Shown: in pieces, positions 57,395 through 64,000 of the stretch
Layout: each line of letters begins with the position of its first letter
Position numbering within the stretch: position 1 is the stretch's first letter
DNA from: Octopus vulgaris
Taxonomy: Eukaryota
NCBI GenBank assembly: GCA_951406725.2
Contig: OX597826.1
Span: forward strand, 53,940,001-54,004,000
Direction of reading: 5' to 3'
DNA length: 64,000 bases
Notes under the pieces: model-generated
Database searches by the model: none
Told to the model about the DNA's origin: nothing
Seen by the model: only the letters and a program-made list of their open reading frames with translations
Position numbers and translations under genes: made by a program

Positions 57395-59167
57395 AATGTC
57401 TTTATGTGCGTTCGTGTGTTACTTATAGACTCGAAAGCTACTGCACTGATCCTAATGAAATTTGGAACACAAAATCCAAGCCTAGGGAGAAGGGTAATGC
57501 CATATGTTTCATACAATTTCATGGAACAAAATTACTGAATGGATCGTTATGATATTTGGAACTTAGATTCAATGCATAAGGACAGGTACAATGCAGTATG
57601 TTTGGCTTGAATTTGAGGTGGCTTAAAGGGGGAAGAACCCCACTCCCACCCATGAAAATTCATTAATTTCTGATGCTGATGAAATTTCAACAATAGGTAA
57701 TTGACACACATCAAGAAGTATTCCCAAAGTTTCCTCTTCTCATGAGGATTCTAAGACCCCCTAATGGGGGCCTTAACTCCCAAATTTTAGTCCTTCTTTA
57801 TGATCCAAAACTAGATCAAAAGTACTGAATGGATCTTTATGAAATTTGGAAATTATATTCTATGCATAAGAACAGATGTAATACAGTATATGTTTGAAAG
57901 TGAGGGGGCATAAATAAGACCATAACCCCCATGAAAATTCATATGTTTTTGCTGCTGATGAAATTTTAACCATAGATATTAGAAGTAATATTCCTAAAAT
58001 TTCAACTTCTTAGGAGTTAGTAAGACCCCTTATTGGGGGCTTAACCCCTATAATTTAGTCATTTTTTTCCTAAACCAAGACGAATACAATTGTAGTCTTG
58101 GAAGCTGTAGAATCACCCAGGCATACAAGATGAGTGCTATTTGTAATTCAATGTACAACAGTGTAAGAGTTTGCTTTGAGATATACTTAGATTATGATTT
58201 CTTGAATGTGGTGCATAAATTGTCAAGTAAAGGAGAGGCATCTTTGCACAAAATCCAAGCCTAGAGAGAAGGGTAATGCCATATGTTTCATATAATTTCA
58301 TAGAACAAAATTACTGAATGGATCGTTATGATATTTGGAACTTAGATTCAATGCATAAGGACAGGTACAATGCAGTTGCAAAGTGATATTTTGAGTAAAG
58401 TTATTTGGTTGCAGACCTCCTTTCAGTCTTTTTATTATCACTGGGTCAGAGATAGTCCCCAGATGGTAACATTGATTTCAAGGCCTTTCCAGATAAGTGA
58501 TTGGTCATTCAAAGAGATTTATAGATTGCAAATTTATTCTATTCAGTTACCCATCAGCATAATGACCATTGGCAAACTCCAGAGGTGACACTTTCATTTT
58601 CCCTTAGCCCTCACGTCACACAGTTGTTAATGTTTATTTGAGTTGGGCTATGCCCCTTCAATTACTATAGATACGTAATACATCTTACAGCTGTACAGGT
58701 CACCTGTATGGTGAAGAATCCTACATTGGGGAGTGCAAACCCAGTGAACATTCATATATTTCCGATTTCAAAGAAATTTGAACAACAGATATAAGACACA
58801 AATTAAAAAAGATTCCCAACAATTCAACTTCTCTGGCTGACTTTAAGATCCTACCCCTAATAGAGGCCTTAACTCCCACATTTTAGATCTCCATGCGTTC
58901 CATTTTTCAGGAGCAAAATCCTTTGAATAGGTTTTATAAGATTTGGATTTTGGAATCTGGGCATAAAGATGAGTAGTATGGGATAAATATGTCATGATTA
59001 GAATTTTTGTTTTGGTGTGTGAAGAAGGAAAGAACCCTTATTAAAATTCTTAATCTCCAATTTTGATGAAATTCGAATCATATGTATTCGAGTTCTAATG
59101 GGAAAATATAAAAGAAAAGTCTAATTCTTCAGTTCCATGTGACAAGCAACGCCGGGTATCTCTGCTA

Positions 59168-59168
<1 letters not shown>
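57380..59168 (+). mobile_element. non-autonomous Helitron with internal subrepeats and decayed PIF1 helicase remnant
   Basis: 3' end gcaacgccgggtatctctgCTAG|T; ~290-bp internal subrepeats; 57466-57596 duplicated at 58246-58377; 58499-58588 DWSFKEIYRLQIYSIQLPISIMTIGKLQR resembles PIF1 DLPF.FKRLQFP.RLAFAMTINKSQG. Confidence 0.7.
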
Positions 59169-59235
<67 letters not shown>

Positions 59236-59719
59236 TTATATATATATACATATATATATATATACACACACACACACATACACACACACAGATACATATA
59301 TATATGTATATATATATTAGTTGTAGGAGTTTCCATTCATTGAAAGAAGTGGTAATAGACAGTCAACATTTATATATTAGAATAGCCAGAGAACATAAGT
59401 AGTAGAGTTGAATTGGTTAGGAGGCAGTGAAAGAGAGATTAAGAAAAGAGAAAGAGAGAGAGAGAGTGAGTAAAAGAGGAATAATAGAGAGAGGGAGTAA
59501 TAGAGTGAGAGAGAGAGAGAGAGAAAGTGAGCTGCATGTAATTGTTGAGATGCATTTAATTGTCAGGCTCATTCATAAAAGATTAGTAAGTATGTCTTAT
59601 GATGCAGAAATTGCTAGCATTCAATAGTTTGTAGGTCTTTCATTATATATATAACCACTGAACAGAAAGACATATACTAGAACATGTGGAATGATGATGT
59701 GAACTTGCTAATAATACAT

Positions 59720-59810
59720 TACCGTATTTTCCGGCATATAAGTCAAATTTTTCACACCAAAATTAGCACCCCAAAAAAGGTAGGTTAACTTATGTACACC
59801 AAGATGACTT
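59720..59810 (+). mobile_element. Tigger/pogo-like DNA transposon end fragment
   Basis: TA-ccgtattttccggcatataag terminus typical of Tigger-type TIRs. Confidence 0.5.
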
Positions 59811-60519
59811 TGGAGGACCAAAACTTCCATGTAAAGTGTGGCAATATTTGGAAAGATAGTGATGATATTTGAATGTTTATATTGCACTTTTGAACTGTGC
59901 ATATTACACTAACTTGCATGCAGGAAAATATGGTACCTAATTATAACTTTCCTTTCAGACAAATACTTTTAACCTAAATTTTGGAGCCACTCAATTTAAA
60001 ATCAGAATCTCTAAAAGTATAGAGATACAGAGCAGCTAATCCCTCTTTCAGAAAATTATTTTCCATCTTAAATGCAAAGTGCATGTTCTTCCTTTGTTTT
60101 ATTTTATTAATTATTTAATCATATTTTTTTAGTATATTCCCCCCCCCCACCACCACCACCACTCTATCATATTTTATTAGTTATTTTATATAGAAACTTA
60201 TGACCAATAGCATCATTTGTTAGGAGTTTCTAACAGACTAATCAGTGGTTCACTTTCTGATGGTACAAATGATGAATGAATTTATTAACTGAAACTCCAT
60301 GCAATAGAGTTCACTTCTACCAAAAAACAAACCTGCTTCTTGCAAAAAAAACTTTGTTTGAAGAGCACATTTTTTTACTGACATGCACTGTTAAAGGTAG
60401 AAACATACATATATATGTGCATTTGTGCATGTGTGTGTATTTATTACCTTCACAACCATGTATATCCTCTATAGCAAGACACCTGTGCATGTCCCACTGT
60501 CATACTTTAGCCTCTCAAC

Positions 60520-60763
60520 CAGCATTTCTCAACCAGGGTTCCCCGGAACCTTAGGGTTCCACAAAAGGTTCCTAGGGATTCCATGAGAAAGAGTGAGATA
60601 AGCTAATGCTAATTTCATGATTGTAATATATATATATATATATTTACCACGTGAACTATGATGAGAAAGATATGGTATATAATTTTTTGTTTGGGCAGGG
60701 GTTCCTAGAGACATGTAATTTATGTTAAATGTTATGCAGGGGTAAAATGGTTGAGAAACACTG
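60520..60763. mobile_element. hAT-type MITE with 8-bp TSD
   Basis: TIRs cagcatttctcaacc / ggttgagaaacactg; TSD ctctcaac / ctttcaac (7/8). Confidence 0.85.
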
Positions 60764-61124
60764 CTTTCAACACCTGGCTCAAAGTCATCTCTCTCTCTAT
60801 TACAACCCTACCCAGTCAAGGGTTTTTTCCTTGGTCTTGAAATGTTACTTGGAAACTTCACTAGTGCTGGCATCACAACAGAAGCACCCAGTATGCTTTG
60901 TAAAGTGGTTGGTGTTAGGAAGAATAACCAGTTGTAGAAACCATGCCAAAACAGACACTGAAGTTCAATGCAATCCATCAGGTCATTGGATCCTGTCAAA
61001 CCAACCAATCCCAGTTAGGTGAATGATGGCCATTAAATGATAATGGTAAGAGAGAGAGAGAGAGTGAACTTTCATTCTAGAATTTCCAGTGTGAAGCCAT
61101 CTTCAGACAAGTCAGACTGATCAA

Positions 61125-61362
61125 TGGCCTTCACGCCACCCTTCATTCTCCGTTCGTCCACGCGCCACGGAGCCGCCAGCGGCAGGCCTGCGCCGGTCGC
61201 CCATTCCTCCGCTGCGCTACTGTGCCCGAAATTGAAAGAGCGAACCTAAGTGTGCGGTATCGCCCACGTACGCGTGGACGTGGACGTAGCCGCGACCGAT
61301 GTCGCGAGATGCACGCGCTCGATACGGCGACGTGGTCCGTCCCGTAAATTCCCGAAGCCACT
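61125..61362. other. GC/CpG-rich segment of unknown origin
   Basis: Hand count: about 142/220 G+C and about 35 CpG in 61141-61360, against an AT-rich, CpG-poor background; single copy in the window. Confidence 0.85.
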
Positions 61363-61635
61363 TGACTGGATTAAATAAATTAATGTGGCTTACTTATGTT
61401 CATATTGAGTACTTCTCTGAGCTGTTACCTAACAATGGCTATACATCTATATCTATACATTTATACACTTCTGCCACACACACAAGATGGGCTTTTATGC
61501 AGTTTCTCTCTACCGAATTTAACTCACATACAATTATTAGCCCTCATCTATTGCTTCAGGATGACTAACAATACCTTGTAAAGGGAATTCGTAAGTGGAA
61601 TGGTGAAAGACATTTACCAAAATTGCCAAGGCTAT

Positions 61636-62060
61636 TTCAAAGGTGGCAAGCTGGTAGAAACGTTAGCATGCCAAGGAAAATGCTTCGCTGTATTTCATCT
61701 GCCGCTACGTTCTGAGTTTAAATTCCACCGAGGTCGACTTTGCCTTTCATCCTTTCAGGGGTCGATAAATTAAGTACCAGTTACGCACTGGGGTCGATGT
61801 AATCGACTCAATCCCTTTGTCTGTGCTTGTTTGTCCCTTCTGTGTTTAGCCCCTTGTGGGTAGTAAAAAAATAGGTATTTCGTCTGCCGTTACATTCTGA
61901 GTTCAAATTCCACCGAGGTCGACTTTGCCTTTCATCCTTTCGGGGGTCGATAAATTAAGTACCAGTTACGCACTGGGGTCGATGTAATCGACTTAATCCC
62001 TTTGTCTGTCCTTGTTTGTCTCCTCTATGTTTAGCCTCTTGTGGGCAATAAAGAAATAAG
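61636..62060 (+). mobile_element. SINE family B (two internal units) with TSD, inserted in an old family A copy
   Basis: aaaattgccaaggctat (61619-61635) / aaaattgccatggctat (62061-62077). Confidence 0.9.
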
Positions 62061-62907
62061 AAAATTGCCATGGCTATGGGATCAAACACAGAACCATATG
62101 GTTGTGAAGCAGACATTGTAACCATATTGCTATGCTTTCACCCATGTCAGCGTGAACTAGCAAATCTAACCGAATATCTCCAATGCAAATTTCCAAAGCA
62201 TTATGACCCAGCATTAAAGGAAAAAAAAACTACAAAATGATGTCTAATAAAGCTTGTAAAATTCTATATTGAAATGCACAGCATTTCTCAACGGTGAAAA
62301 TCCTGTCAGTTCTAATGTTCAATACATATCGTCAACTTTTATGGAGGAAAAGAAAGGACAAAAGAAGGACTATCAGAAACCTTGGTGGAAAAGGTGGACG
62401 TTAATAAAGATTAGCAGCCTTGGGAAAGATATAACAAGTTAGACCAGTAGAAGCAGGGTAAATTAAAGAATGAAGAGAAAGATAGATTAAAAGGGAATGC
62501 ATCAGACGAAGAATAAGTTAACCAAAAATAATCCTGTCTACAATAGGTACAATGTCTGAAATTTTGTGGGGGGGTTCAAGTTAGTTTTGGATTTATGGTT
62601 TTTACAAATGATATATATATATATATATAGGGTCACTGACCTTAGATATCTAATTACACACTTTCAAGAACTACATTCTTAACTTAAACTGCCAACATAG
62701 TTGGTCATTCTCCCATTTCCTAGCTGGCCTCAACAGGCACATCCCTGCTGTATTCTTAGATATTCTTTTGTGTGGTAAAATTACTTCTCATCAGCTGTCA
62801 TTATTCATTTGATTACATATATATATATATATTATATGTGCGTGCATGTGTGTGTATGTATATATATATTTATTATATATACATGAGTATGCATGCATAT
62901 ATATATA

Positions 62908-63221
62908 TCATCATCATCATCATCATCGTTTAACGTCCGTTCTCCATGCTAGCATGGGTTGGACGGTTCGACCGGGGATCTGGGAAGCCAGAAGGCTGCA
63001 CCAGGCTCCGGTCTTATCTGACAATGTTTCTACAGCTGGATGCCCTTCCTAACGCCAACCACTCCGTGAGTGTAGTGGGTGCTTTTTACGTGCCACCTGC
63101 ACTGGTGCCAGGTGAGGCTGGCATCGGCCACGGTCGGATTGGTGCATTTTACATGCCACCAGCACGGAAGCCAGTCGAGGCAGGACTGGCTTCGGCCACG
63201 ATTCGGATGGTGCTTTTTACG

Positions 63222-63226
<5 letters not shown>
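62908..63226 (-). mobile_element. SINE-like family D, young copy
   Basis: CpG-retaining body, (CAT)n tail on the plus strand. Confidence 0.85.
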
Positions 63227-63263
<37 letters not shown>

Positions 63264-63578
63264 GAGACAGGCTTCTTAAGTTTCCAACCATCAAATCCAC
63301 TCGCAATGCTTTGGTCAACACAGGGCTATAGTAGAAGACACTTGTCCAAAGCGCCATGCAGTGAGACTGAACCAAAGACCATATGGTCAGGAACCAAGGA
63401 AGCAAGCCCCTTAACCACACCACCACACTTGCACCTATGTCTTCAAAAAAAAAAAAATAGAAGAAGAAGAAGAAGAAAGGCAAAAGAAAAGAAAAAAGTA
63501 TTGAACTTAAGCCATGGCTTGAAGATATTCCAGTATTTACTACCACTGCAGTTTCTAAACTTTAAGTTCTCACATTAC

Positions 63579-63641
63579 CTTTGGCAATAACTCACTAACT
63601 CTTTTACCAATAGCAGGCTTAATTTGATATATCAACAAAAA
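63579..63641 (-). other. candidate 63-nt symmetric exon (FLLIYQIKPAIGKRVSELLPK)
   Basis: Minus strand ttttctaagcctactacAG acceptor and AAG|GTAATG donor; open only in phase 0. Confidence 0.2.
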
Positions 63642-64000
63642 CTGTAGTAGGCTTAGAAAATAAGTTGAATGCTAGAGTGTGAAACAATAGCAAATAGAAA
63701 ATAATGGAAATCTTTTGTTTTTACAGTTTTTAGCTTCTGTTTATCCTTTTTTTTTTTTTTTACAATATTAATTTTGTTACTCTTAATTATAATTATTCTT
63801 AATTGAATTATTCAACTTGTTTAATGATGCTATTTAATTATTGTTTATTAATATTCCTATTATTATGATTCTTTAATCCATCCTAGCTAGAATAAATTTA
63901 ATGAAGTTATGTTAGAAAGAATCATTTAATAAACATTGTTCAATAATAATTATTGATATAATGAAAGAGATATTCATTTCTAGGATGGTGAGAGCAAATA

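Follow-up and report, generated by a model that had tools for sequence, protein, structure and literature searches.

A CpG-rich island in the Octopus vulgaris genome is a dispersed fragment of the host's own 45S rDNA intergenic spacer

The island at positions 61125-61362 of the analysed window, a stretch of 64,000 nucleotides of Octopus vulgaris DNA, is a fragment of an intergenic-spacer (IGS) subrepeat that belongs to the 45S rDNA of the host itself. There are good grounds for thinking that this spacer fragment, 230 bases long by its limits of homology (Table 1), was captured at a break by end-joining and is now a CpG-decaying and probably inert piece of DNA. The stretch contains 238 nt with a GC content of 0.647, 36 CpG and a CpG observed/expected ratio of 1.47, compared with 0.356 and 0.29, respectively, for the whole window, whose next-best 238-nt segment carries 15 CpG. 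The first-pass annotation had described an island of about 240 bp, rich in GC and CpG, sharp-edged and without kin among the window's repeats, and each of these points is borne out, as the borders are abrupt and no relative of the island occurs inside the window. The "alien" makeup that it had also claimed is real locally but does not hold genome-wide, since the host rDNA spacer is equally rich in GC and CpG (GC 0.64 and 36.6 CpG per 238 nt), and this composition accounts for the foreign look of the island.

The identity of the island was determined by a search of the host's own genome (2.8 Gb in 227 contigs, with the window at C13:53,940,001-54,004,000). The search returned at least 104 matches (40 of 257 candidates scored), many of them in tandem and adjoining rRNA sequence. 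A match to host rDNA had been named beforehand as the result that would speak against an unusual origin, and this is what was found. In 30 kb of contig C20, which carry full-length 18S, 5.8S and 28S genes followed by the next 18S (complete unit about 18 kb), all 42 island matches lie in the spacer and none in the rRNA genes; 18 of them precede the first 18S and 24 are placed between the end of 28S and the next 18S. The complete C20 spacer holds four full-length island homologues with 76-78% identity. Among the origins proposed in the first-pass annotation, the rDNA spacer fragment is therefore the one that stands, whereas an rRNA expansion segment is contradicted by the restriction of the matches to the spacer. 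The best non-self copies among the candidates scored are 92% (C10) and 91% (C16) identical, and both are dispersed spacer pieces. Because the island resembles the assembled array at 76-81% and other stray pieces at 91-92%, it may sample an older or unassembled variant of the spacer. It is located outside the rDNA array, in non-rDNA flanks, and it is decaying, which are the features of a dispersed rDNA fragment (orphon or pseudogene). The island is thus an ordinary dispersed rDNA spacer fragment, a known kind of sequence.

The same data provide a view of the host rDNA unit. Contig C20 contains seven 5.8S genes in tandem, spaced 18.3-23.3 kb apart according to a 5.8S search, and the rRNA genes of this array (L065-L067) are expanded, with an 18S of about 2.65 kb and a 28S of about 4.89 kb. 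The spacer consists, in order from the 28S end, of a tandem array of about 140 bp, four higher-order units, a gene-proximal promoter-like block and about 1.55 kb leading to 18S. At the head of every higher-order unit is a duplicate of the promoter-like block; one full-length island homologue begins about 100 bases after this duplicate, and several shorter ones come next. The four promoter-like duplicates of a spacer are 95% identical over 64 nt to the gene-proximal block and read TATATTGAGGG. A comparable layout was observed on C33 and C28. Just past the 28S gene, at C20:24026380-24026540 (L066), the spacer carries duplicated bits of its own 28S (39 nt at 90% and 51 nt at 88%), which derive from either side of the R2-type target site.

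The duplicated blocks are predicted to be spacer-promoter-like because TATATTGAGGG is close to the arthropod start consensus, given as TATA>TANGRRRR in the IGS account of PMC2590618, and to the motif of the stick insect Bacillus. In that account the Bacillus spacer Bag530 is composed, like the host spacer, of tandem units with a duplicated start-site motif, and both spacers contain palindromic motifs in their repeats. Unlike the Bag530 units, the higher-order units of the host measure about 0.85-1.4 kb and are built from subrepeats of about 200 bp, the island is a subrepeat lacking the promoter block, and the host promoter is a prediction from its motif. Counted from the predicted spacer start, the island spans about +98 to +321, and the promoter-like block is not included in it. 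An open-access literature search found no paper on the cephalopod IGS.

Table 1. Coordinates of the island, its internal features and its flanks (window positions).
Feature	Position	Strand	Remarks
Dispersed copy of the first ~225-bp subrepeat after the spacer-promoter-like block (predicted), 45S rDNA IGS	61127..61356	+ (= rRNA sense)	own-genome matches
Left arm, 10-bp inverted repeat	61155..61164	+	from the spacer subrepeat; motif also in sister copies
Right arm, 10-bp inverted repeat	61271..61280	+	arm of at least 10 reached in 15/500 shuffles
6-bp tandem duplication	61273..61278	+	only in the window copy among 44 aligned (pairwise and multiple alignments)
Left flank including GA microsatellite, no other genome match found	61049..61126	.	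39 non-self matches all end by query 169 (40 of 2111 candidates scored)
Right flank, no other match found	61357..61439	.	10/10 candidates scored; non-self matches from query 91 on
GAAGCCA	61093..61099, again 61354-61360	+	offset from the left junction; chance or repair filler

The island was also encountered in public DNA runs. In run X1, a single contig covers 60935-61243 at a depth of 22 (19-20 in the flank contigs) and bridges the left junction. At the right junction, contigs of X1 and X4, two runs from different studies and with different species labels, start at 61327 and run into the flank, so that they contain 30 letters of the island, one fewer than the bridging rule requires. The check by junction-spanning reads that had been proposed is thus answered for the left junction, and for the right one by 30 island letters only. 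Neither junction was found in two of the four runs (X3 and X6) among the pieces listed, and the joints listed from public runs include none that skips the island, as an empty allele would. As the X1 contig differs from the window by 6 letters and 9 gap positions, it probably comes from another individual. The right-flank contig of X6 starts at 61368, whereas those of X1 and X4 start within the island, and there may be a junction variant or a different allele at window positions 61357-61367 in this run.

The left junction in a public run argues against an artefact, and with the match to host rDNA it removes the contamination or artefact option raised in the first-pass annotation. The broader explanation by foreign (bacterial or viral) DNA, contamination or an assembly artefact has the local contrast in composition as the sole point on its side and can practically be dismissed: the match to host rDNA already refutes it, none of 72,556 plasmids or 50,697 phages matched the island, the four ORFs that overlap it gave no Pfam match, and the left junction lies within the X1 contig described above. 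Acquisition of the island from a prokaryote or a phage was likewise rejected as a candidate, the host being the closer match and the frames being free of Pfam matches. Pfam searches of 22 of the window's 66 ORFs of at least 90 aa, together with three shorter island frames, also gave no match, and a host gene was not located. The minus-strand peptide that had been reported does exist as a frame, and its "VHVH" part is explained by the 6-bp duplication private to the window copy (Table 1).

The substitutions of the island are those of a sequence in decay. Relative to the majority among 43 copies, eight substitutions are private to the window copy; six of them are CpG transitions, an excess with a binomial p between 9e-5 and 4e-3, according to the transition rate that is assumed. 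Compared with the closest donor, CpG transitions make up 7 of 12 substitutions, and in the X1 contig they are found at 61135, 61161 and 61168, that is at three of the four island differences that could be assigned. This spectrum is as expected for neutral decay, and the copy fits a sequence slowly mutating away. The loss of CpG may reflect methylation of the island, which by now is probably inert DNA.

The named pairings, including the 10-bp inverted pair at 61155 and 61271 and the palindrome at 61182, are all present, and the 10-bp arm is mildly unusual when compared with shuffled sequences (Table 1). The description of the island as highly self-complementary, however, does not survive comparison with dinucleotide shuffles. 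The minimum free energy has a z of -0.10 on the plus and -0.81 on the minus strand, and 86 of 200 and 40 of 200 shuffles, respectively, fold as well as the island. The caveat of the first-pass annotation that GC-rich DNA pairs by chance was therefore well placed, as the self-complementarity of the island is what its composition gives. An alignment of 18 copies showed no covariation (term +0.95; 2 of 47 pairs compensated), and within the island Rfam found nothing, even with E values up to 10 admitted; in a scan of 60500-62000, the four matches returned were weak, stayed below the gathering score and lay beyond the island. The suggestion of a structured ncRNA finds no support in these three results. 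A functional structured ncRNA or co-opted regulatory element at this locus could draw on the right-junction contigs of X1 and X4, which show the locus in no fewer than two public runs labelled as different species, on the 10-bp inverted repeat and on the proposal, in the discussion of spacer subrepeats in PMC2590618, that such subrepeats are Pol I enhancers in other animals. With folding no better than in shuffles, pairs that are rarely compensated, no Rfam match and CpG sites being lost, this explanation is very improbable.

The flanks of the island bear on the manner of its arrival. Its 3' junction has no retroelement tail or poly(A), and no adjacent target-site duplication (TSD) of more than 2 nt was detected. 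The GAAGCCA motif noted earlier does occur on both sides (61093 and 61354) but does not qualify as a TSD, because its left copy is found outside the island, 27 bp from the left junction. Three of the seven bases of the right-hand GAAGCCA belong to the donor sequence, the motif is found 10 times on the plus strand of the window, and a match of this type arises by chance in 4% of 3000 random left flanks. Read as templated filler, the GAAGCCA-CTT likeness between left and right has a chance of 2.7-4%, calculated post hoc. The left flank was also considered as a decayed extension of the donor, a candidate that was rejected as 12.6% of 3000 random flanks score equally. No paralogous empty site was found, the immediate flanks being without another match, and window positions 58001-64000 contain no further rDNA besides the island. 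High-copy dispersed repeats are located near the island at 61645-62000 and 60882-61048, the right-hand one being partly tandem-duplicated (61690-61873 against 61875-62000+).

Our best guess is that the piece was captured when a break was repaired, because there is no adjacent TSD and no tail, the flanks are without a repeat and no other rDNA lies nearby. The process would comprise a chromosome break away from the rDNA cluster, the capture of a piece of 45S rDNA spacer at this break by end-joining repair and the subsequent gain of CpG transitions in the inserted copy. Dispersed rDNA including the IGS has been documented in the human genome (Robicheau et al., 2017, PMC5381670). In the parts of that study on 45S and IGS pieces these are, as here, off-array and degraded, and their route of escape is undecided. 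In contrast to the human case, the island is a single subrepeat of 230 bp that is still recognisable at 92%, and its host is an invertebrate. Ectopic recombination and circular rDNA are routes discussed in passages of PMC10946416. For the template of the capture, a broken or circular piece of rDNA has a slightly better than even chance, and a reverse-transcribed spacer RNA would be a serious candidate below that level; the DNA template is weakened because sister fragments of the island show signs of an RNA route.

Another possibility is that a mobile element with spacer repeats (Pokey-like or R2-linked) brought or left the piece, or that a larger rDNA orphon was trimmed by deletion. Transposable elements with IGS-derived repeats exist, such as Pokey (in the passages of PMC10946416 on such elements), and multi-kilobase rDNA mosaics are present at several host loci. 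These histories are nevertheless improbable, given that positions 58001-64000 are devoid of other rDNA, that the immediate flanks match no repeat found and that the sister fragments do not have both ends or their flanks in common.

The alternative to a DNA template that has to be considered most carefully is that a short Pol I transcript from a spacer promoter gave rise to the island as a 5'-truncated retrocopy, made by template switching of a retroelement reverse transcriptase. The island lies wholly within the predicted spacer transcript, and the ends of sister fragments were analysed in this respect. Set A was collected by exact matching of a pattern that covers +8..+29 relative to the predicted start (31 matches, 30 loci fetched) and the control with a pattern at -50 (44 matches, 30 loci fetched). 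The 5' ends in set A fall at -3..+6 in 9 of 30 loci, compared with 0 of 30 controls within 12 nt (Fisher p 0.002), and, counted by cluster, 9 of 23 independent ones show such an end. Among the 30 control loci, a single one has its 3' end at the AT-rich start motif (-4..+6), which means that it is 5' ends that pile up. Moreover, in three of the eight start-site copies examined, and in L113, a repeat 3'-end motif follows directly downstream in sense, a motif with a background of 0.27% of 28,680 windows. The tail of these copies is the end of a dispersed repeat with short tandem units, a repeat that appears to be SINE-like. Five of the 20 rows of set B, a control with a pattern at +108 (21 matches, with L110 dropped as an 18-nt chance match), start at +1, +6, +9, +19 and -11; two of these loci belong to set A as well, and the starts are in line with the RNA route but suggestive only.

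Several chromosomes carry short spacer fragments starting at the predicted spacer start (L068-L071, L074-L076, L079, L092, L112 and L113). The far end of several of these fragments is near +105, +122 or +208, and in four cases the sequence runs into the SINE-like 3' end. Chimeras of small RNAs and of 28S with LINE-1 are known (in passages of bioRxiv 10.1101/2025.02.02.635956), and L070, L071, L074 and L113 are similar to the U6/L1 and 28S/L1 chimeric retrocopies described there, in that the 5' part of what looks like a short RNA continues in sense into the 3' end of a repeat. The island differs from these retrocopies in having no such tail, and the LINE-1 preprint does not contain the word "spacer". 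The pRNA transcribed from spacer promoters in the mouse is 150-300 nt long (in the relevant part of PMC6678565), and the spacer parts of the same four fragments come near this length with 100-125 nt. An open-access literature search found no paper on retro-copied spacer transcripts either.

The island itself agrees less well with a retrocopied transcript, as it starts at +98, not at +1, and has neither tail nor TSD. Inspection of the data preceded the choice of both the 12-nt cut-off and the tail motifs; five of the 30 controls stop 13-21 nt out, and at a cut-off of 21 nt the comparison becomes 9 against 5. The AT-rich start motif could draw microhomology joins to (TA)n host DNA (L074 and L076), one of the nine start-site copies (L075) adjoins another rDNA piece and not host DNA, and the start site is a prediction. 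No TSD was demonstrated around the sister copies, and an Rfam search of their tails found no hammerhead or other family, only microsatellite-driven miRNA matches below the gathering score. On balance, the sister fragments suggest that spacer RNA has been retro-copied into the genome, with a control that depends on the cut-off, and an origin of the island by this route is conceivable but doubtful. The wider proposition, that short Pol I RNAs from spacer promoters are reverse-transcribed in this genome and inserted into it, in some cases as chimeras with a SINE-like 3' end, and that the island (+98) is a downstream or truncated piece, a snapshot of an older variant, is more tentative still and on present evidence rather unlikely.

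The island belongs to a larger population. The dispersal of rDNA is frequent in the host genome, since 33 of the 40 scored 5.8S matches, on many chromosomes, lie off the C20 array. At C33:180001-234000 (L021-L026), a pure satellite of spacer subrepeats occupies at least 52 kb and flips its orientation near 232.5 kb; an rDNA unit that has undergone deletion and rearrangement comes after it. At C16:58562400-58572650 (L030-L031), a scrambled array of spacer subrepeats extends over 10 kb with several inversions and contains no rRNA gene at the gathering score. Fifteen loci were annotated by BLAST to rDNA only.

Summarizing, the island itself matters little, as its GC and CpG anomaly is explained as host rDNA debris. 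Before foreign DNA is proposed for islands of this type in the octopus genome, they should be compared with the rDNA spacer. A first-pass anatomy of the host rDNA spacer has been obtained as a by-product. If the RNA route were true, the dispersed fragments would constitute a fossil map of the spacer start (-3..+6) and of preferred RNA ends (+105, +122 and +208), and a Pol I start site could be located from genome sequence alone. It would also qualify the argument that dispersed IGS must move as DNA: in the part of PMC5381670 on IGS pieces these are taken to argue against reverse transcription, whereas the sister fragments of the host cluster at the predicted spacer start.
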